A DNA stretch of 36,706 nucleotides from the IMG/VR virus record IMGVR_UViG_2529293140_000002. The stretch is one strand, 5' to 3'. This DNA is from a virus (Duplodnaviria > Heunggongvirae > Uroviricota > Caudoviricetes). A program made the position numbers and the translations under genes. The number at the start of each line of letters is the position of its first letter. Positions within the stretch are counted from its first letter, which is position 1. The notes under the pieces are model-generated. The model saw only the letters and a list, made by a program, of their open reading frames with translations, was not told the origin of the DNA and ran no database searches. Below, piece after piece: positions 7,800-35,772 of the stretch.

Positions 7800-8243
7800 G
7801 AAATGTTGCCCCCAGGAGGATTCATTCTAATGGGGGCTAGTTTGGGCAACGAGTGAAACGAGGCGTAAGGTGGGTAATCATTTTGATAAGTGATCGCCCA
7901 CTTTGTGCCAAAAGCGGACATCGCAGATATGACAATATGTTAGTCAACCGCGATTAGATCAGTCAGTTGGAGATGGGGGGAAGTTACAAAAACTTGTCGT
8001 CCGCCATCTCCGACTACGGGTATTCTTAACTGTACATGCTCTTTCAATCGATGATTTTTGAGTAAGTGACTAACCTATTGTTTTGATAGTAATTAAACGT
8101 ATAAACGTGCGGAGTTAATTTGAAAGTTATGTGTCTATGTTTGACAAGCAAAATTTTAAAGATTGGTTTTATCCACAGGTAATTTATGCTATTAATAGCC
8201 TCAAGCCCTGTAATTATTTTTATTTAAATGGATAAATTTGAAA

Positions 8244-10364
8244 ATGAGTACATATCATAATGATCAGCCAATACTAGGTGGTCAAAATGACCCCGATTTA
8301 TTAAACAGGCTCGATTTTGCAAATCACTTGGCAAATATTCTACTATTAAATCACAATGATGATTGCCTTACTGTATCTATAGAGGCAGAGTGGGGATATG
8401 GTAAAACGTCAGTGATAAATCTTATAAAAGGTGCTTTGAATGAAAAGGAGTTCTTACCAATAATAATAGAATATAATCCATGGCTGGCCGGTCAACCTGA
8501 ATCCTTGATTCAGGATTTTTTATTACAGTTCTCTTCACAACTAAATATTAAAGACAATTCAAAAGCTGCTTTGGAAGCTTCAAAAGAATTAATTGCATAC
8601 TCCAATCTCTTCAGTGTAGCAAAACTTATTCCAGGGACAGAACCTTGGGCATCTATCATAGAAAAAGTCCTCTCTAATTTTGGGAGTGCTACTAAAAAGA
8701 TTGCTGAATTAAAAAAACTGGATCTTTTAGGTAGAAAAAAACAAGTAGAGAAGGCAATAAAAAAAATAAAAAATCCTATTGTGGTAATAATTGATGATAT
8801 TGATCGATTGACTCCTGCAGAAACTTTTCAAGTTTTACGATTGGTTAAAGCAGTTGCAGATTTCTCAGGAACTTCTTTTTTACTTGCATTTGATCCTAAT
8901 TATTTGATTTCTGTGCTTGATAAAAATAATATCGTCAATTCTTCGGAGTATCTTAATAAAATTGTTCAACTTCGAGTCCCACTTCCTGTAATCTCAGAAA
9001 GGGGTATGAATGAACTTGCAAATGCAGAACTGGAAAAGATAGCTAATAAATCTTTAACTGACAGATTCGAAAGTGATCAAGAAAGACTAAGCTGGATTTA
9101 TCATAATTATTTTAAAAAACTAATTAAGAATCCGAGAGAGTTAAAAAGATTTTTTAACCATTTGAGATTCGTTTTAGAGCAAATTGAAGGGCAGGTATGT
9201 TTTTCTGATCTCTTTGCTTTATCTCTGGTCGCCACTAAATCGAGTTTGGTATACGAGCATATTAAAAGCACACCAGAGGCATATATAGGGAAGAGATTCA
9301 CTAATGATGGCCTTTTGATGGATAAACCTCAAGATATTGTGGATAGATTTAGTGATGAGCGAAATAAGAAACTGAGTAATTTTTCTGATCAAGAGCGTTC
9401 AGTGATGCAGGAACTCTTAGGAGATATTTTCCCACTTCTACAGTCAAGCGGGTATTCTCATTATGGGGTTTCTGATCCCGATACAGCAGGAAGGGTTTCT
9501 GCACCACAAAGGCTTCATATTGCGTTTCATTATAAAACTCCAGCAGGGTATATTTCTGATCATGATATTATCAGTTTCATTAATGGAGATGTCAAAAGAA
9601 ACGAATTTCTAAGAGATGTGCTCTCGCAAAATGCAGAAGAAAGATTTTTTGAAATGATGAATAATTATTCGAGTTATTGTAAGGATAATAGTTTTGAAAT
9701 ATTAACGTGTATTTATGATACTTTTCTGTTTTCTCAAGAATTGAAATCCTCATTGGAAAGAAACTATGGTTTTTTGACAAAAGATCTTTATAGAAGGATG
9801 AATTGGCTCACTAATAAGGTAATATCTGAAAGTGATGATAAATATGGGTTAATAAAGGGGGTTGTAGGTAGGCATGAGAATGCGCCACTTGGTGCAGACG
9901 TATTATGCCAAGCTCGTAAACAGATTCAAAATGGATGGAATGACAAAATATGGGTTAGTATTGAAGAATTGGCTGAACTTGAAGGTATCTTTCAACAGGT
10001 GGCTATTAAAGTTTTAAGTGATAAAATATATTTTGATTATCATCTTGAATCTCATATATTTTTCGAATTAAAGAGAGTTTCATCTCAATTTACATCAGAG
10101 TTTATTGCTTCTGTATTATCAAGTGATGGCCTGATTAGGATGTGTGAGATTATTGGTGAAACAGGTAGTGATTCAACAAATGGCCCTTATTTTAAGTTTG
10201 ATGAAATTTACTTCGGGGAAATACTTGATGTGAATGAACTTCGAAATAAAGCGAAAAATTTAGATTTTTCAATTTATCCCACACGCATTCAAGCTGTACT
10301 TAAGAGTATTCTGGATGGACAAAAATATTATTTGAGAGATGCAACTGTTGGTGAAGATTGGTAA
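8244..10364 (+). CDS. KAP-family P-loop NTPase
   Basis: About 706 aa from the ATG at 8244 (the track ORF starts at a TTG at 8238); Walker A WGYGKTS at 8391-8411 and Walker B hhhhDDIDR (IVVIIDDIDRL) at about 8781-8807, the characteristic KAP NTPase signatures; strongly AT-rich compared with the phage backbone. Confidence 0.8.
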   Translation: MSTYHNDQPILGGQNDPDLLNRLDFANHLANILLLNHNDDCLTVSIEAEWGYGKTSVINLIKGALNEKEFLPIIIEYNPWLAGQPESLIQDFLLQFSSQLNIKDNSKAALEASKELIAYSNLFSVAKLIPGTEPWASIIEKVLSNFGSATKKIAELKKLDLLGRKKQVEKAIKKIKNPIVVIIDDIDRLTPAETFQVLRLVKAVADFSGTSFLLAFDPNYLISVLDKNNIVNSSEYLNKIVQLRVPLPVISERGMNELANAELEKIANKSLTDRFESDQERLSWIYHNYFKKLIKNPRELKRFFNHLRFVLEQIEGQVCFSDLFALSLVATKSSLVYEHIKSTPEAYIGKRFTNDGLLMDKPQDIVDRFSDERNKKLSNFSDQERSVMQELLGDIFPLLQSSGYSHYGVSDPDTAGRVSAPQRLHIAFHYKTPAGYISDHDIISFINGDVKRNEFLRDVLSQNAEERFFEMMNNYSSYCKDNSFEILTCIYDTFLFSQELKSSLERNYGFLTKDLYRRMNWLTNKVISESDDKYGLIKGVVGRHENAPLGADVLCQARKQIQNGWNDKIWVSIEELAELEGIFQQVAIKVLSDKIYFDYHLESHIFFELKRVSSQFTSEFIASVLSSDGLIRMCEIIGETGSDSTNGPYFKFDEIYFGEILDVNELRNKAKNLDFSIYPTRIQAVLKSILDGQKYYLRDATVGEDW

Positions 10365-10956
10365 TACTTTTATAGGCATGCTTAGAGATGATGGAGTATC
10401 TTTTTCTCCCTTTTTGAGGAAGTGATTTCCAACTGGGCATGGATGCCACATCAAATGGACAGTTGTTGTCACCTGTCAGTTAGCTGCTATTTGTTTATAG
10501 CAGCTGAAAGCCCACTACATAGTTACACCAGAAGGAGTAACAATGTAGTGGATAGCTAAATTTGACCACCTTAACAGATATGTTAATTTCCCCCCTCGCT
10601 CACAGCGGACTTTCATCTTTGTAAACCCTTATAATTCGCTTTTCAGCGGTCATTCAGATACGGATTTACGCTTTCCTTGGCAGTGCATGACTATGACGCA
10701 TGAGATCGCATGATCGTTTGAGGATCGTTTTTGCTGAGGCCAGCCAGAACTGGCGTGCTTTTGCTTATGTCATGCAGGTGCATGAAAACCACTACATAAA
10801 GTGGGCAGGCGTGGCGGGGATACGAGCGCGCGCTAACTCTTGGCTTTGTTTCATAATCAAAAATGTGATCATTGAGATTATTCTTAATTTTATGTTTGTC
10901 TATGAAATATCATTTCGCTTAACATTGTTTGAGTTAGGACTACATGAGAATAAAGA

Positions 10957-11532
10957 ATGCTTTTACCCGTAAGTGTTACATCGTGTGGCTTGTATCACCC
11001 CTACTGGCATTTGGGAGAGCGCAACCCTCATAGCGATGAACTATCAAGGCAGATGATGGATTTTAAGGATGAAAATAATCGTAATCATCAAAGGGCTATT
11101 AACCGTTTTTCTCGATTAGCTATAGATAAGGTTGGGCGGTTAGTAATCAGAGGTGGCGGTGGGCGTTTTGTTGAGTCTCCTTTTTCGATAGCAGTCGTCC
11201 CATCTCACACTGAAGGCAGAATTTCACCGGCTTTGATTGAGGTCGCCGAGCGAATCGTAAATGTTCACCGTCGGGGCATTGTTGATTGCTGTTTGGAAAG
11301 AACACGCACTGTTCCTAGCGCACATCGTGAAGGAGGAGATCGCTCAATTACTGGTCACATGTCTAGTATCAGAGTTAGGGGTGGTAACCTCATGGGGCGA
11401 AATGTGTTACTACTAGATGATGTTAAAACAACAGGCGGTAGTTTGTCTGCGTGTTTTTATTTACTGGAGTCTGCAGGAGCTGGAGTTATAATGCCATTAG
11501 CTCTGCTAGAAACTGCAAACTATGAGGAGTAG
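10957..11532 (+). CDS. Phosphoribosyltransferase-domain protein (ComF-like PRTase); candidate toxin or effector
   Basis: 191-aa ORF; type I PRTase PRPP-binding signature VLLLDDVKTTGGSL at 11404-11442 plus upstream ComF-like blocks (SIAVVPSH, LERTRTVPSAHRE); N-terminus uncertain because a possibly frameshifted ORF 10700-10972 lies upstream. Confidence 0.7.
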   Translation: MLLPVSVTSCGLYHPYWHLGERNPHSDELSRQMMDFKDENNRNHQRAINRFSRLAIDKVGRLVIRGGGGRFVESPFSIAVVPSHTEGRISPALIEVAERIVNVHRRGIVDCCLERTRTVPSAHREGGDRSITGHMSSIRVRGGNLMGRNVLLLDDVKTTGGSLSACFYLLESAGAGVIMPLALLETANYEE

Positions 11533-12496
11533 CAAAGTGCACTCAGAAGAATTAAAAAATACACTTGGATTAGCTATTCAAATCGGGAAGCTAGCATCTG
11601 ATCAAAGTGTATTGAAATTCTTTGAGCTTATTGATTTTGATGTTATTCGTGATATACGCGACTTAACTGAGATGGTTAATAGCCACGGGTTTCTAAAAGA
11701 TAAAATATCTGAGACTGATTTTCTAATAGCGAATGCTGAATTGGAGAACCACCATGTTAATGGTGTGGAGCTAATACCATATGGGTCTGAATTCTATCCT
11801 CTTAGTTTAGCGTTTACTCCTAATCCACCATCAATTCTCTACATAAAAGGGGATAAAAGTATACTAAAAGAATTGCCGGGTGTCGCAATTGTAGGATCCC
11901 GTGATACTTCCCCTGCAGGGGAAGAAATAACGAGGCGAATCACTAATCAGATAGTGTCTGCTGGGTATATTGTTGTAAGTGGGTTAGCAATAGGCACTGA
12001 TGCGAATGCTCATAAGGCAACGTTACAAGCAAAAGGAAAAACCATTGCTGTCTTGGCGCATGGTCTTGAGGAGGCTAAGCCGAAGCAAAACAGTCGACTT
12101 GCTCAAGAGATTCTGGATAAAGGTGGTGCATGGATTTCTGAGTATCCTATGGGGCGACCGGCCCAGAAACAATCATTTGTACAAAGAAATCGGATACAAG
12201 TTGGATTATCTGCAGGTTCAATTTTAATCGAGGCTGCGTTAAATAGCGGAACGATAACTCAAGCTGAGTTTGCAAATAAGGCTAAAAGACCAGTGTTTGC
12301 GGTTGTACCTCACCTACCTAATAATCCGCTTAATCTTAATTGTGAGGGAACAGTTGATTTAGTTAAGAGCAACATGGCTAGAGCGTTAAAAACAAAACGG
12401 GATTATGATGATGTGATTATGATCATAAATGAGTCTCGGGAGTATTTGTTAGAGCTAAAATGGCCAGGGAAACAGAGTACATTAGACTTGATTTAA
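11522..12496 (+). CDS. DprA/Smf-like Rossmann-fold protein; candidate antitoxin or partner of the PRTase
   Basis: 324-aa ORF overlapping the PRTase stop (alternative GTG at 11537 after GAGGAG); DprA signature VAIVGSR...VVSGLAIGTDANAHKA...IAVLAHGL...SEYP...RNRI...LIEAALNSG...RPVFAV. Confidence 0.75.
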   Translation: MRSSKVHSEELKNTLGLAIQIGKLASDQSVLKFFELIDFDVIRDIRDLTEMVNSHGFLKDKISETDFLIANAELENHHVNGVELIPYGSEFYPLSLAFTPNPPSILYIKGDKSILKELPGVAIVGSRDTSPAGEEITRRITNQIVSAGYIVVSGLAIGTDANAHKATLQAKGKTIAVLAHGLEEAKPKQNSRLAQEILDKGGAWISEYPMGRPAQKQSFVQRNRIQVGLSAGSILIEAALNSGTITQAEFANKAKRPVFAVVPHLPNNPLNLNCEGTVDLVKSNMARALKTKRDYDDVIMIINESREYLLELKWPGKQSTLDLI

Positions 12497-16303: not shown

Positions 16304-17362
16304 ATGAAGAAGAATACCCGCTTTGCTTTTAACGCTTACCTGCAGCAACTGGCACGTCTGAACGGTGTGGCAGTTGAAGAACTGTCCAGCAAGTTCACTG
16401 TAGAGCCGTCTGTGCAGCAGACGCTGGAAGACCAGATCCAGCAGTCCGCCGCTTTCCTGACGCTGATTAACGTCACGCCAGTGACTGAGCAGTCCGGTCA
16501 GCTGCTGGGGCTGGGTGTTGGCAGCACCATTGCCGGAACCACTGACACCACCGCGAAAGAGCGTGAACCTGTCGATCCGACGCTGATGGTCGATGTGGAA
16601 TACAAATGCGAGCAGACCAACTTTGACACGGTGCTGACCTACGCGAAGCTGGACCTGTGGGCGAAGTTTCAGGATTTCCAGGTGCGTATCCGTGACGCCA
16701 TCGTGAAACGTCAGGCACTGGACCGCATCATGATCGGCTTTAACGGCGTGAAGCGTGCGAAAACCTCCAACCGTAGTGAAAACCCGCTGCTGCAGGATGT
16801 GAACAAAGGCTGGCTGCAGAAAATCCGTGAGGATGCACCGGATCACGTCATGGGCAGCACCACCACGGGCGGTGAAACCACTCCGGGTGCGGTGAAAGTC
16901 GGGAAAGGTGGCGAATATGCCAACCTGGACGCTGTGGTGATGGATGCCGTCAATGAGCTTATCGACGTGGTTTACCAGGACGATGACGATCTGGTGGTGA
17001 TTTGCGGTCGTGAACTGTTGTCTGACAAGTATTTCCCGCTGGTCAACAAAGAGCAGGAAAACAGTGAAAAACTGGCTGCCGATATGATCATCAGCCAGAA
17101 ACGCATGGGTGGCCTGCAGGCCGTGCGTGCGCCGTTCTTCCCGCCGAATGCGCTGCTGGTCACCCGTCTGGATAACCTGTCCATCTACTGGCAGGAAGAC
17201 ACCCGCCGCCGTTCAGTTATCGACAACCCGAAACGTGACCGGATTGAAAACTTTGAATCCGTTAATGAAGCCTATGTGGTTGAGGACTACCGCTGCGCCG
17301 CACTGGTGGAAAACATCCAGATTGGTGATTTCAGCGCCGCCGCAGCCGAAACCGGAGCGTAA
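16304..17362 (+). CDS. N: Major capsid protein (P2 gpN-like)
   Basis: 352-aa ORF in conserved order O-N-M; size matches P2 N. Confidence 0.9.
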   Translation: MKKNTRFAFNAYLQQLARLNGVAVEELSSKFTVEPSVQQTLEDQIQQSAAFLTLINVTPVTEQSGQLLGLGVGSTIAGTTDTTAKEREPVDPTLMVDVEYKCEQTNFDTVLTYAKLDLWAKFQDFQVRIRDAIVKRQALDRIMIGFNGVKRAKTSNRSENPLLQDVNKGWLQKIREDAPDHVMGSTTTGGETTPGAVKVGKGGEYANLDAVVMDAVNELIDVVYQDDDDLVVICGRELLSDKYFPLVNKEQENSEKLAADMIISQKRMGGLQAVRAPFFPPNALLVTRLDNLSIYWQEDTRRRSVIDNPKRDRIENFESVNEAYVVEDYRCAALVENIQIGDFSAAAAETGA

Positions 17363-23757: not shown

Positions 23758-25427
23758 GCACAAAATTTTATACCCTGCTGACGGATATTGGCGCGGCGAA
23801 ACTTGCCAGCGCCGCCGCGCTCGGTGTGCCGCTAAAAATTACCCATATGGCGGTGGGCGATGGTGGCGGAACATTGCCGACGCCGGACGCAAAGCAGAGT
23901 GCACTGGTAAATGAGAAACGTCGGGCTGCGCTGAATATGCTCTATATCGACCCACAGAACAGCAGCCAGATTATTGCTGAACAGGTGATCCCTGAAAACG
24001 AGGGCGGTTGGTGGATACGTGAAGTGGGCCTGTTTGATGAGTCCGGGGCATTGATTGCCGTGGGAAACTGCCCGGAAAGCTATAAGCCGCAACTGGCTGA
24101 AGGTAGCGGGCGCACTCAGACCGTGCGCATGGTGCTGATTACCAGCAGCACGGACAATATCACCCTGAAAATCGACCCTGCTGTAGTGCTGGCAACCCGC
24201 AAGTATGTGGATGACAAGGCACTGGAGCTGAAGGTGTACGCGGATGATCAGATGGCAAAACATCTTGCCGCACCGGACCCGCATTCACAGTATGCACCCA
24301 AAGAAAGTCCGACGTTTACCGGGACACCCAAAGCGCCAACGCCAGCAGCAGGGAATAACACCACGCAGATTGCGACCACCGCGTTTGTTCAGGCGGCTCT
24401 GACGGCCCTTATTAATGGTGCGCCAGCCACGCTGGACACGCTGAAAGAAATAGCCGCAGCCATTAACAATGATCCGAATTTCAGTACCACCATTAACAAT
24501 GTGCTGGCACTAAAAGCACCGTTGTCGAGTCCGGCACTCACCGGAACGCCAACAGCCCCCACGGCGGAGCAGTCGGTCAACAATACACAGATTGCCACTA
24601 CGGCTTTTGTGAAATCGGCGATTGCAGGAATGGTGGGTTCTGCACCCGCGGCACTGGATACACTGAACGAACTGGCGGCGGCACTGGGGAATGATCCGAA
24701 CTTTGCCACGACAATGCTTAATGCGCTGGCAGGTAAACAACCGCTGGACAATACGCTGACTAATTTGAGTGGAAAGGATGTTGCTGGTCTTCTCGCATAC
24801 CTTGGTTTGGTGGATGATTCCGGTGTAGTAGGCCGCTTGCTTAATACTCAAGTGATTACCTCATCTGGTACTTACACCCCAACACCGGGTACCCGGAAAA
24901 TTAAGGTAATTCTTACCGGGGGAGGTGGCGGTGGTAGTTCTGTCATCGCCACATCATTTTCTCAGACGGCGTTTGGAGGTGGAGGTGGCTCTGCCGCAAC
25001 CTGCATCGGTATTTTTGACCTTGAAGATATCAGTGATTTTTCTGTCGTTATCGGAGCAGGTGGAACAGCTGGTAATCCAGGTGGGACATCAACATTTAAT
25101 GGAATGTCAGCCGGTTGCGGTGGTGGTGGATCCGGCGTAAACACTCCGGCAACTGGTACTGGTGGTACAGCTGGAACAGCTACTGGCGGGCTAATCAATA
25201 TCCATGGTGGCCATGGTAGTGACGGTCAGGTGGGAAGTTATTACTCATTTGGTAATGGTGCGGCTTCGTTCTGGGGGGGAGGTGGTCGTTCTGGTGCTGC
25301 TAATGGTATTGCAGCCAAAGCATATGGTGCTGGCGGAGGTGCTGCTTATGACACCGCTTTTTCAGGAGTGCTAAAAGCCGGTGGAACAGGAGCGCCTGGG
25401 ATCTGCGTGATTGAGGAGTTTGCATAA
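23754..25427 (+). CDS. H: Tail fibre protein H with glycine-rich C-terminal domain
   Basis: 557-aa ORF; N-terminus typical of P2 H (MSTKFYTLLTDIGAAK...); internal tandem repeat (NTTQIATTAFV...LDTLKEIAAAINNDPNF, twice); C-terminal third is glycine-rich. Confidence 0.85.
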   Translation: MSTKFYTLLTDIGAAKLASAAALGVPLKITHMAVGDGGGTLPTPDAKQSALVNEKRRAALNMLYIDPQNSSQIIAEQVIPENEGGWWIREVGLFDESGALIAVGNCPESYKPQLAEGSGRTQTVRMVLITSSTDNITLKIDPAVVLATRKYVDDKALELKVYADDQMAKHLAAPDPHSQYAPKESPTFTGTPKAPTPAAGNNTTQIATTAFVQAALTALINGAPATLDTLKEIAAAINNDPNFSTTINNVLALKAPLSSPALTGTPTAPTAEQSVNNTQIATTAFVKSAIAGMVGSAPAALDTLNELAAALGNDPNFATTMLNALAGKQPLDNTLTNLSGKDVAGLLAYLGLVDDSGVVGRLLNTQVITSSGTYTPTPGTRKIKVILTGGGGGGSSVIATSFSQTAFGGGGGSAATCIGIFDLEDISDFSVVIGAGGTAGNPGGTSTFNGMSAGCGGGGSGVNTPATGTGGTAGTATGGLINIHGGHGSDGQVGSYYSFGNGAASFWGGGGRSGAANGIAAKAYGAGGGAAYDTAFSGVLKAGGTGAPGICVIEEFA

Positions 25428-25840
25428 TGAATTACGCATTAATTAAAAATAATGTCGTCGTAAATACGGTTGTCTGTAATTCAGATAACGATGCAAAAAA
25501 ATTATTTCCGGATTACACCGTCATTAATATTACTGGCATTGCCGCAGGAATAAACTGGACATATGACGGTACTAATTTCACGGCGCCAGTTATTGAAAAA
25601 TCAGTTGCCGAATTAGCCGCGGAAAATATGGCAATATCAAACTCTGAGTATGCTCGCGCAACAACTCAAATCGATTTGTTGAACGATCAGATCCAGGATG
25701 CTGACTACACTGACACAACTGAGAACGCAGTGAAGTCGGCACTTACAGAGTGGACTGAGTACCGTAAATCATTACGTGCATATATCAGGGCTGGTGACTG
25801 GACACAGTCACTGCCTATTCAGCCAGATTCGGTCAGTTAA
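25427..25840 (+). CDS. G: Tail fibre assembly chaperone (P2 gpG-like)
   Basis: 137-aa ORF immediately after H with TAATG overlap; AT-rich relative to the phage backbone; position of the tail fibre assembly gene. Confidence 0.65.
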   Translation: MNYALIKNNVVVNTVVCNSDNDAKKLFPDYTVINITGIAAGINWTYDGTNFTAPVIEKSVAELAAENMAISNSEYARATTQIDLLNDQIQDADYTDTTENAVKSALTEWTEYRKSLRAYIRAGDWTQSLPIQPDSVS

Positions 25841-25895: not shown

Positions 25896-25996
25896 TGGCT
25901 GGCGAACTTTCGATAGTGCGAGTATTGAACGTTTAAGAAAATGAAGAGATAACGGCTAACTGGCATCATTTCCGGTTTCTATTCAGGGGGATGATC

Positions 25997-26563
25997 ATGC
26001 TTATTGGATATGTACGCGTGTCAACAAATGACCAGAACACCGATTTGCAACGTAGTGCGCTGAACTGCGCGGGATGTGAGCGGATTTTTGAGGACAAAAT
26101 CAGTGGTACTAAGTCCGACAGACCGGGGCTTAAAAAACTGCTCAGGACACTATCGGCAGGTGACACACTGGTTGTCTGGAAGCTGGACAGGTTGGGGCGC
26201 AGTATGCGGCATCTTGTTACGCTGATAGAAGAGTTGCGCCAGCGCGGCGTGAATTTCCGAAGTCTGACTGACAGTATTGATACCAGTACCCCAATGGGCA
26301 GTTTCTTTTTTCATGTCATGGGTGCCCTGGCTGAAATGGAACGCGAACTGATAGTTGAACGTACCAGGGCAGGGCTGGCTGCAGCTCGTGCTAAAGGCAG
26401 AGTAGGTGGACGCCGTCCTAAGTTGACTACCGAACAGTGGGCACAGATTGGGCGTTTACTCGAGGCCGGAGAATCAAGACAGCGTATTGCACTGATTTTT
26501 GATGTAGGCGTTTCTACCATTTATAGAAAATTTCCGGCAAATAAGAGCAATGAATCTCCCTGA
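25997..26563 (+). CDS. Serine recombinase, DNA invertase of the Hin/Gin/Pin/Cin family
   Basis: ATG at 25997 after GGGGGA; N-terminus MLIGYVRVSTNDQNTDLQ with catalytic serine context, resolvase domain and C-terminal HTH (GVSTIYRKF); about 188 aa. Confidence 0.85.
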   Translation: MLIGYVRVSTNDQNTDLQRSALNCAGCERIFEDKISGTKSDRPGLKKLLRTLSAGDTLVVWKLDRLGRSMRHLVTLIEELRQRGVNFRSLTDSIDTSTPMGSFFFHVMGALAEMERELIVERTRAGLAAARAKGRVGGRRPKLTTEQWAQIGRLLEAGESRQRIALIFDVGVSTIYRKFPANKSNESP

Positions 26564-26705: not shown

Positions 26706-27044
26706 ATGGCTCAGGATTACCACCACGGAGTGCGCGTTGTTGAAGTCAACGAAGGCACCCGATCCATTACCACGGTGAGCACCGCCATCGTGGGTATGGT
26801 CTGCACGGGCGATGATGCCGATGCAAAAATGTTTCCTCTTAATAAACCCGTGCTGATCACTGATGTGCTGACTGCCAGCGGTAAAGCGGGCGAGTCCGGT
26901 ACGCTGGCCCGTTCGCTGGATGCCATCGCTGACCAGGCAAAACCCGTGACCGTTGTTGTGCGTGTGCCGCAGGGTGAAACGGAAGAAGAAACCACGACCA
27001 ATATCATCGGCGCAGTGACTGCTGAAGGTAAAAAACAGGCATGA
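26706..27044 (+). CDS. FI: Tail sheath protein FI, N-terminal fragment (gene interrupted by frameshift)
   Basis: 112-aa ORF starting [19 protein letters not shown], the conserved sheath N-terminus; terminates at TGA 27042-27044 just after an A6 run (27030-27035). Confidence 0.75.
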
Positions 27045-27877
27045 AAACCCTGTTATCTGCCCAGTCACAGCTCGGCGTTAAACCGCGCATTCTCGGCGTG
27101 CCAGGTCACGATAACAAAGCCGTTGCTACTGAGTTGCTGAGCGTGGCGCAAAGCCTGCGTGGGTTTGCTTACCTGTCAGCGTATGGCTGCAAGACGATAC
27201 AGGAGGCGATCACTTACCGCGAAAACTTCAGCCAGCGCGAAGGGATGCTGATCTGGCCTGACTTTACTGGCTGGGACACGGTGCTGAATGCCGAAGCAAC
27301 GGCATATGCCACCGCCCGTGCGCTTGGTCTGCGCGCCAAAATTGATGAGCAGACTGGATGGCACAAAAGCCTGTCCAACGTGGGCGTGAACGGTGTCACC
27401 GGAATTTCTGCTGATGTGTTCTGGGATCTGCAGGACCCGGCAACCGATGCAGGTCTGCTGAACCAGAACGACGTCACCACGCTTGTGCGTAAAGACGGTT
27501 TCCGCTTCTGGGGTTCCCGCTGCCTGAGTGATGACCCGCTCTTTGCCTTCGAAAACTACACCCGCACGGCGCAGGTGCTGATGGACACGATGGCAGAAGC
27601 ACACATGTGGGCGGTGGATAAACCGCTTAACCCGTCGCTGGCCCGCGACATTATCGAAGGTATCCGCGCCAAAATGCGCAGCCTGGTCAGTCAGGGCTAT
27701 CTCATTGGTGGTGATTGCTGGCTGGATGAGTCGGTGAACGACAAAGACACGCTGAAAGCCGGAAAACTCACCATCGACTATGACTACACGCCAGTGCCGC
27801 CACTTGAAAATCTGATGCTGCGCCAGCGCATCACCGATCAGTACCTGGTGAATTTCGCCAGCCAGGTCAGCGCGTAA
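27041..27877 (+). CDS. FI: Tail sheath protein FI, C-terminal fragment (continues in -1 frame)
   Basis: 278-aa ORF in the -1 frame relative to the N-terminal fragment; contains conserved sheath blocks ([47 protein letters not shown]); the two fragments total about 390 aa, the size of an intact P2-type sheath. Confidence 0.75.
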
Positions 27878-28456: not shown

Positions 28457-28759
28457 ATGAGCGATAAGCAGACTGAAAAGACCATTCAACTGGATACCCC
28501 CATCAAGCGCGGTAAAACAGAAATCACCGAAATTGTGCTGCGTAAACCGCAGTCCGGTGCGCTGCGCGGTACACGCCTGCAGGCCATTATGGATATGGAT
28601 GTAAACGCGATGATGACCGTGATCCCCCGCATCTCCAGTCCGGCACTGACTGCACAGGAAATTGCAGAGATGGACCCGGCAGATCTCACTGCCATGTCGG
28701 TTGAGGTTGTCACTTTTTTGTTGAAGAAGTCGGTGCTTGCCGGTTTACCGACAGCCTGA
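28457..28759 (+). CDS. E: Tail assembly chaperone E (P2 gpE-like)
   Basis: 100-aa ORF between the tube and tape-measure genes; contains the slippery T6G run near its 3' end. Confidence 0.8.
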   Translation: MSDKQTEKTIQLDTPIKRGKTEITEIVLRKPQSGALRGTRLQAIMDMDVNAMMTVIPRISSPALTAQEIAEMDPADLTAMSVEVVTFLLKKSVLAGLPTA

Positions 28760-31963: not shown

Positions 31964-32445
31964 TGATGGTGCTGGGATTGTACGTGTTTATGCTGCGCAC
32001 CGTGCCGTATCAGGAGCTGCAGTATCAACGCAGCTGGCGACATGCGGCAAACAGCCGGGTAAACCGACGTCCGTCCACGCAGTTTCTGGGACCGGACAAC
32101 GACATGCTGACGCTTTCCGGTGTTCTTATGCCGGAGATAACAGGTGGCAGGCTGTCGTTGCTGGCACTGGAGCAGATGGCAGAACAGGGGAAAGCATGGC
32201 CCCTGATTGAAGGCAGCGGCACGATTTATGGCATGTATGTGATTGAGGGACTGAATCAGACTAAAACGGAGTTTTTCCGCGACGGTATGCCGCGCCGGAT
32301 TGAGTTCACCCTGTCGCTCAAAAGGGTGGATGAATCATTGTCCGATATGTTCGGTGATCTCAGTGCGCAACTGAATAATCTGCAGGACACGGCAACGTCT
32401 GCCTTAAGCGATATCAGTAAAACGGTGGGAGGGCTGCTGTCGTGA
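31960..32445 (+). CDS. U: Tail protein U (P2 gpU-like)
   Basis: 161-aa ORF with ATGA overlap to T; size matches P2 U. Confidence 0.85.
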   Translation: MMMVLGLYVFMLRTVPYQELQYQRSWRHAANSRVNRRPSTQFLGPDNDMLTLSGVLMPEITGGRLSLLALEQMAEQGKAWPLIEGSGTIYGMYVIEGLNQTKTEFFRDGMPRRIEFTLSLKRVDESLSDMFGDLSAQLNNLQDTATSALSDISKTVGGLLS

Positions 32446-34086: not shown

Positions 34087-35772
34087 TTATCCTAATCCTG
34101 GCCATACCATGACGATGATTGTCCCTGCCAGCGTCAGCAGGACGTTGGCGATTGCATAGGTGCCCGCATAGCCCAGCGCCGGGATGTTACTGCGAGCTGT
34201 ATCACTGATGATCTCCATTGCCGGCGCGCAGGTACGTGCGCCCATCATTGCGCCGAACAACAGCGCGCGGTTCATTCGCAATACATAAGCACCGAACAAG
34301 AAACAGATAACCACGGGCACCAGACTGACAATCAATCCGGCAATCAACATCTGACCGCCAATCGCGCCCAGGCCGTTATTAATACCGCTACCGGCGCTCA
34401 GACCAACGCCTGCCATAAACACCATCAAGCCGAACTCTTTCACCATGCTTAATGCACCCTGCGGAATGTAACCGAAGGTCGGGTGGTTAGCACGCATAAA
34501 GCCCAGCATAATTCCGGCGAATAACAACCCGGCAGCGTTCCCCATGCCGAAACTGAATGTGCTGAACTGGAAGGTGATCATCCCGATCATCAGCCCAATA
34601 ACAAAGAAGGCGCAGAATGCCAGCAGGTCAGTGACCTGGCTGTGAATCGAGATAAAGCCGATGCGATCGGCGATGGTTTTTACGCGGCGGGCATCGCCGC
34701 TGACTTGTAAAACGTCACCTTTGTTAAGCACGACGTTGTCATCTATCGGCATCTCAATCTGGCTACGAATGACGCGGTTAAGGAAGCAACCGTGATCGGT
34801 CAACTTCAGTTGTGCGAGACGTTTACCTACAGCGTTATGGTTTTTAACGACCACTTCTTCAGTGACGATACGCATGTCGAGAAGGTCACGATCGAAAACT
34901 TCTTTACCGTTACGGAAGCTGGGATCGAGTCGGGCATGGGCGTCGGGATAGCCTACCAACGCTATTTCATCGCCCATTTGTAGCACGGCATCACCGTCTG
35001 GATTTGCCAGAATCCCGTTACGTCGAATACGTTCAATGTAGCAGCCGGTTTGTCGATAAATACCCAGTTCACGCAGATTTTTGCCGTCGGTCCAGGCCAC
35101 CAGTTCCGGGCCGACGCGATAGGCGCGGATCACCGGTAAATAAACCTTACGGTTGGCATCAGTGTCCAGGCCACGTTCGCGGGCGATTTGCTGGGCGCTG
35201 GTCTGTAAGTCCTGATGCTGCAATTTCGGCAAGTAACGCGCACCAACAATCAAACTCACCAGACCGATTAAATAGGTTAAGGCATACCCGAGGCTCAGAT
35301 TATCCAGTGCCAGTGAGAGCTGCCTGCTTTCCATGCCGGAATGACGCAGTGTATCGCCAGCACCGACCAGAACCGGTGTCGACGTCATAGAGCCTGCTAA
35401 CATACCGGCCGTCAGGCCAATATCCCAGCCAAACAGCTTACCTAACCCTAAGGCGATCACCAGCGCACTGCCAACCATCACCAGTGCTAACATTAGGTAA
35501 TTTTTCCCATCGCGAAAAAAAATGGAAAAAAAGTTCGGTCCGGCTTCGACCCCGACGCAGAAAATAAACAGCATAAAGCCAAGATTAAGCGCATCGGTGT
35601 TAATGCTGAAATGTTGTTGGCCTAATAACAGCGATACGACTAAAACGCCAATGGAATTACCCAGTTGGATCGAACCAAGTCGTAACTTTCCGAGACATAG
35701 CCCAAGCGCGAGGACCACAAATAATAACAGAATGTAATTCCCATTTAACAATTCGGCGACGTTTATATTCAC
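34087..35772 (-). CDS. ybjL: Putative transport protein YbjL (AAE-family membrane transporter with TrkA-C-like domains)
   Basis: 561-aa ORF whose sequence ([33 protein letters not shown]...) I recognise as E. coli YbjL; multi-pass membrane protein with central soluble domains. Confidence 0.85.

Follow-up and report, generated by a model that had tools for sequence, protein, structure and literature searches.

An apparent split of the tail sheath gene in a P2-like prophage of Escherichia coli E482 is probably a homopolymer under-call

Introduction

P2-like phages encode their tail sheath protein, gpFI in phage P2, in a single uninterrupted frame. Contractile sheaths that are naturally made of two pieces are known from the type VI secretion system, where the short N-terminal and long C-terminal polypeptides of the TssB/TssC (VipA/VipB) type together roughly correspond to one phage-type sheath protomer. 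Programmed frameshifting is likewise known from phage tail genes, as the tail chaperone genes of phages P2 (E/E') and lambda (G/GT) are read by a -1 shift. In E. coli, ribosomes slip on Lys codons in A-runs, as they do in dnaX, and efficient transcriptional slippage takes place on runs of about nine bases or more.

Apparent frameshifts at homopolymers may also arise during sequencing. In 454/Newbler consensus sequences of E. coli K-12, tracts of length 7 had an error rate of 1.5% per tract, with missing bases accounting for 67 of the 103 errors, and tracts of length 4 had a rate of 0.0082%, with extra bases in 22 of 24 cases (PMC3045373 Table S3). A bias towards A/T and a dependence on tract length were also found for 454 homopolymer errors in PMC3277595.

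Here, we analysed a prophage in which the gpFI-like sheath gene appears as two open reading frames that meet at a run of six As, as pointed out in an earlier note made from the sequence. We compared the locus with near-identical prophages, complete genomes, metagenomes and read assemblies of the source strain.

Results

The sheath gene of the window is split directly behind an A6 homopolymer

The window, by which we mean the whole analysed stretch of 36,706 bases (IMG/VR record IMGVR_UViG_2529293140_000002), contains a complete P2-like (Peduoviridae) prophage that extends from an integrase gene beside rcdA to ogr beside ybjL and is followed by the host genes ybjL to grxA. The window matches scaffold GL871807.1 in the 2011 draft assembly of E. 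coli E482 (GCA_000190835.1) with 100% identity. The sheath locus has the following features:

26706..27877, + strand: the entire gpFI-like tail sheath gene; its 1172 nt compare with 1173 nt in all relatives
26706..27044, + strand: ORF of the N-terminal fragment, 112 aa, GenBank EGB38920.1, with Pfam domain PF22671 Gp18_domIII_N (3.7e-12)
27030..27035, + strand: A6 homopolymer, A7 in every close relative; the single base behind the split
27041..27044, + strand: ATGA overlap, in which the premature TGA (27042-27044) overlaps a Met codon (27041-27043)
27041..27877, + strand: ORF of the C-terminal fragment, 278 aa, GenBank EGB38921.1 (E. coli E482)

At the break, the window reads GCT GAA GGT AAA AAA CAG GCA TGA. 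As the earlier note had stated, and as both the sequence and the list of open reading frames show, the N-terminal ORF ends at its TGA right behind GGT AAAAAA C. The remaining part of the sheath was correctly placed in the -1 frame from 27041, two bases out of phase with the 112-aa ORF, and this 278-aa piece carries the sheath domains PF04984 Phage_sheath_1 (6.9e-31) and PF17482 Phage_sheath_1C (9.6e-24). Its first Met codon corresponds to an internal Met, residue 113 (GKKTGM), of the intact sheath gene. A one-base slip on AAA AAA had been proposed to restore the sheath reading. Correspondingly, adding one A to the run computationally yielded a 1173-nt ORF and the predicted 390-aa protein, which is identical to WP_000046149.1 and contains all three sheath Pfam domains.

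P2 FI (NP_046778.1) matches the orthologous 390-aa protein with 68% identity over 390/396 residues. The alignment runs unbroken across the split point, where one side of the pair reads GQYTGLKAMLAAES. Together with the Pfam domains, this full-length similarity identifies the gene as a P2 FI-like sheath gene, and the alignment to the P2 sheath given in the note proved correct. The gene order expected of a P2 sheath locus was also found, with the tube gene (FII), E/E', T (tape measure), U, D and ogr. The relatives read the sheath in a single uninterrupted frame, whereas the deposited sequence is one base short of it.

Near-identical prophages carry seven As and differ at only two further sites

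Relatives annotate the sheath locus as one 1173-nt CDS, 'phage tail sheath protein'. The same prophage is present at 99.99% identity in E. coli BE311, F41, K99S and EC24.26, four independent complete genomes that agree with each other, and all four have A7. The comparison of run lengths in orthologous sheath genes suggested in the earlier note thus gave the same answer in all close relatives, a tract one base longer than in the window. Judged from these alignments, the break comes from a run one base shorter than in every close relative and is not a chance pattern. BE311 aligns to the window along its full 36,706 bases, with a single mismatch and two gaps of 1 nt, and only three sites separate the window from the four genomes: the A6/A7 tract of the sheath gene, a T5/T4 tract at 10411-10415 and a substitution at 16427. 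The T-tract, which we used as evidence on assembly quality, is as follows:

10411..10415, + strand: intergenic T5 homopolymer, T4 in all relatives

All 18 of the 18 RefSeq complete genomes that carry the 10411-10415 segment have T4 and not T5, and the T5 is probably a second homopolymer miscall of the E482 draft. It neither restores nor breaks a gene, being located between the stop codon of a KAP NTPase gene and a ShosT-like ORF. Position 16427 is G in the window (Glu42 of the capsid protein) and A (Lys) in BE311, F41, K99S and EC24.26. As G also occurs in the more distant prophage of TUM2820, we rejected this substitution as a divergence unique to E482 and regard it as a natural polymorphism of the major capsid protein. 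With G shared by TUM2820 and T5 present in no relative, both differences restricted to the window are homopolymer length calls. No substitution demonstrably unique to the window was found against the four near-identical prophages and TUM2820. Two homopolymer length differences without a clearly unique substitution fit sequencing error. A difference that is restricted to the window and located in a homopolymer, among relatives that are otherwise near-identical, is the pattern expected of an artefact. Elsewhere in the window, every homopolymer that reaches 7 bases or more agrees with the relatives (12/12).

Read assemblies of E482 show further homopolymer under-calls

The exact 278-aa product is recorded only in the E482 assembly and in the Logan assemblies of the runs SRR024131 and SRR070457. 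The sheath tract assembles as A6 in both of these E482 runs, and A6 is therefore the majority call in each. Within 18 kb, the only departures of the SRR024131 assembly from the deposited sequence are three losses of a single homopolymer base, at 25495-25501 (A7 to A6), at 28714-28719 (T6 to T5) and near 32427 (G3 to G2), which indicates that E482 reads are prone to such under-calls. The contig from SRR070457 agrees fully with the window for 9.7 kb and stops within the A8 tract at 35515-35522, which suggests that homopolymer lengths may vary in the SRR070457 reads too. Thus, further homopolymer miscalls and error-prone reads, both to be expected with an artefact, were found in the T5/T4 difference and the three deletions of SRR024131.

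A literature search on strain E482 returned nothing on the sequencing platform. Judged from the era of the accession and from the error signature, E482 was probably sequenced by 454, and the directions of the two window differences, A7 to A6 and T4 to T5, are those typical of published 454 errors.

The short tract is rare among complete genomes, sheath loci and metagenomes

A 71-nt query across the site matched 709 RefSeq complete E. coli records. None of them (0/709) had the A6 form; there was no exact match, and the best span was 72 bases, which corresponds to A7. By the rule of three, zero in 709 places the upper bound of the natural A6 frequency at about 0.4%; the true frequency would lie below this and more likely near 0.1%.

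A broader census used the 278-aa fragment as query against IMG/VR and one genome per GTDB species and gave 154 sheath loci. A7 was present in 94 of these and a frameshifting A6 in none (0/154); many lineages have no A-run at the site and read AAG AAA ACN, CAG CGC ACC or CAG TAC ACA instead. In 149 loci, the frame has no stop in 100 or more codons before the site; of the remaining five, three are cut off by a contig end or have no run, and two have a frameshifting A8. The orthologues are accordingly a single gene, and the possibility raised in the earlier note that they might genuinely be two genes at this point did not hold.

The two loci in which A8 frameshifts the sheath gene belong to Xenorhabdus bakwenae SF857 (CP119194.1; L157) and X. 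budapestensis DSM 16342 (L170), with the tract some 20 nt before locus position 1001. Across the loci sampled, indels at the sheath tract, real or erroneous, appear to recur outside E. coli.

An exact-pattern scan of IMG/VR returned A6 in two contigs, both of them from isolate genomes, and A7 in at least 120. In the corresponding metagenome scan, A6 occurred in no contig and A7 in at least 120. In the data covered by these scans, genuine A6 alleles appear to be rare. The frequent tract length polymorphism among strains that characterizes phase-variable loci is not seen with 0/709 RefSeq records, no metagenome contig and 2 IMG/VR contigs.

Other assemblies with a short tract are of mixed quality

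The exact 112-aa product was found in 111 index blocks and 69 contigs, compared to a cluster of 5230 members for the intact form. Because the prophages that carry it are of different variants and occupy two integration sites (ybjL and smpB), we rejected an A6 allele inherited throughout a lineage; the underlying events or errors are therefore independent. We aligned each A6 locus to the BE311 prophage. L008 and L014, both of them long-read-style chromosomes, each show about 25 short indels within 18-19 kb, and most of these lie at homopolymers. In the 2010-2012 drafts L009 (probably E. coli 1827-70), L012 and L015 and in the IMG contig L301, additional homopolymer indels break other genes. L015 (position 9606) and L301 (position 10838) both show T6 to T5 in the DNA invertase gene. 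They represent different prophages that are 97% identical and both have A6 in the sheath gene, and the common shortening of the invertase tract in unrelated assemblies suggests a systematic platform error.

Four loci are otherwise clean and short at the tract, L010, L013 and L016 with A6 and L011 with GGA followed by A7, which is likewise one base short. Real deletions at the sheath tract therefore probably exist in some genomes. A 4-nt length difference at a short GCCA-type repeat in the tape measure gene occurs in L013 (around 14027) and in L301 (around 6417). In L013, this indel splits the tape measure gene into products of 648 aa and 347 aa, which may reflect real decay of that prophage.

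Neighbouring features of the prophage

The gpE-like tail chaperone ORF at 28457-28759 contains T TTT TTG at 28714-28720, in the right frame for the conserved programmed -1 frameshift of P2 E/E'; the T6 in it is the tract that the SRR024131 assembly shortens to T5. The -1 frame is open to 28893, giving an E+E' product of 145 aa; in the RefSeq relatives, the annotation of the E/E' locus is limited to a separate ORF of 39 aa, 'GpE family'. A cargo island (8238-12496) is located between a DinI-like gene and the portal gene. The cargo genes, together with an invertase gene near the sheath gene, are:

8238-10364: PifA-like KAP P-loop NTPase (PADLOC, 6.7e-65)
10957-11532: ShosT-like phosphoribosyltransferase of a Shosta-like pair (3.6e-14)
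11522-12496: ShosA/DprA-like protein of the Shosta-like pair (2.8e-70)
25991-26563: Gin/Hin-type DNA invertase gene, flanked by the tail fibre genes and the sheath gene

The ShosT-like ORF is unannotated in the RefSeq versions of BE311, F41, K99S and EC24.26, which have a 1156-bp gap at this place. The invertase gene is preceded here by a 137-aa ORF only (25427-25840); in relatives, phage Cartapus among them, inverted genes for tail fibre assembly occupy the position next to the invertase.

Discussion

Miscalled, mutated or recoded

From the above, we infer that the sheath split is most likely an artefact and not biology, namely an A7 tract read as A6. The real gene would have seven As and encode a single, ordinary tail sheath protein of the P2 type, 390 aa in length; the E482 draft, which probably stems from pyrosequencing, would have called the run one base short, and the resulting apparent -1 frameshift would have been annotated as two genes. 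According to the published rates, a 454 consensus lacks a base at about 1% of A7 tracts; for the E482 assembly the figure is probably higher, given its other homopolymer length difference and the noise in one of its runs. With this miss rate and a natural A6 frequency below about 0.4% (around 0.1%), the odds of error versus real mutation are roughly 3:1 to 10:1 or better. Counting against an artefact, the error rate of about 1% is only some 3 to 10 times the upper bound for natural A6, both E482 runs give A6, the 12 other long tracts are called correctly, and clean short-tract loci exist (L010, L011, L013 and L016). Some of these observations also speak for a real and very recent deletion, in which replication slippage from A7 to A6 in the E482 lysogen would have inactivated the sheath gene and left a prophage that is otherwise intact, tail-defective and revertible by slippage. 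In a lysogen, selection does not act on prophage genes, and A6 was assembled from two separate E482 runs. Given the frameshifts at the same tract in the otherwise clean L010, L013 and L016 (A6) and L011 (GGA + A7), with L013 also carrying the indel in its tape measure gene, as well as the A8 of both Xenorhabdus loci, the sheath tract also seems to be a hot spot of natural mutation. Nevertheless, we consider a real deletion in E482 unlikely: A6 is absent from all 709 RefSeq complete E. coli records and from the metagenome contigs, E482 reads demonstrably under-call homopolymers in the SRR024131 assembly, and the sole other window-only difference is again a homopolymer length call, with no substitution unique to the window. 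Such an indel-only ratio is unlike natural mutation spectra, as substitutions outnumber indels in mutation-accumulation studies of E. coli.

It is far less probable still that the split gene is functional as it stands. Under this reading, -1 ribosomal slippage of tRNA-Lys on AAA AAA or transcriptional slippage would yield the full-length sheath, the two pieces would be coupled via the ATGA overlap and assemble like TssB/TssC, or the tract would serve as an on/off switch. Slipping back one base on AAA AAA does give the exact orthologous sequence, the stop codon and the next ATG do overlap, and the break falls at a Pfam domain edge, at the first residues of PF04984. However, every clean data set shows the orthologues as one ORF, so that the two-frame arrangement is unconserved, and so is the A-run, given the codons that replace it in many lineages; P2 differs at the site as well. 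T AAA AAA is an incomplete X XXY YYZ heptamer, and we found no stimulatory RNA structure (fold of -29 kcal/mol versus -26.8 +/- 3.2 for shuffled sequences, z = -0.69). A run of A6 or A7 is below the length for efficient transcriptional slippage, and a major structural protein needed in many copies is a poor match to low-efficiency recoding. We give very little credence to the idea that the A-run in the sheath gene of this widespread E. coli/Klebsiella P2-like group acts as a hypermutable on/off switch for tails in lysogens, or that the A6 form still gives sheath; slippage on the Lys codons or a coupled two-piece sheath, the routes by which A6 might do so, share in that same slight chance. Altogether, the order of explanations in the earlier note, with sequencing error and a recent inactivating mutation placed before a less likely tolerated slippage, is backed by the A7 of the relatives, the quality of the draft and the lack of conservation of the tract.

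Consequences for annotation

EGB38920.1 and EGB38921.1 are most likely the halves of one ordinary sheath gene, separated by a base-calling error. Dozens of identical 112-aa 'tail protein' entries in the databases most likely belong to the same class of artefact. Neither these nor the 278-aa entries should be taken to mean that the prophage is defective, that a new small protein exists or that the gene is recoded. If the deletion were real after all, it would represent routine decay of a prophage at a homopolymer.

Comparison with known systems

The arrangement in the window resembles TssB/TssC (VipA/VipB) in that the break is also located at a domain edge. In contrast to this natural two-piece sheath, the split in the window, with its two predicted products, occurs in a small minority of assemblies and is conserved in no lineage. 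With the -1 frameshift of the tail chaperones (P2 E/E' and lambda G/GT), it shares the operon and a homopolymer at the junction of overlapping frames. However, the T TTT TTG site of P2 E/E' is conserved and annotated in P2, whereas the sheath A-run is unconserved and forms a noncanonical heptamer. The errors of 454/Newbler drafts also resemble the split, in that they likewise remove a single base from an A/T run of 7 and add one to a run of length 4. Random errors of this kind would often differ between runs, whereas both E482 runs, for which 454 is the probable platform, agree on A6. P2 gpFI and WP_000046149.1 have the same Pfam domains and the same gene order of sheath, FII, E/E', T, U, D and ogr. 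Compared to these, the window gene is one base short and annotated as two CDS, and a DNA invertase gene, which P2 itself does not have, is located just upstream of the sheath gene. Whether by error or by mutation, the sheath split of the E482 prophage belongs to a well-known class.
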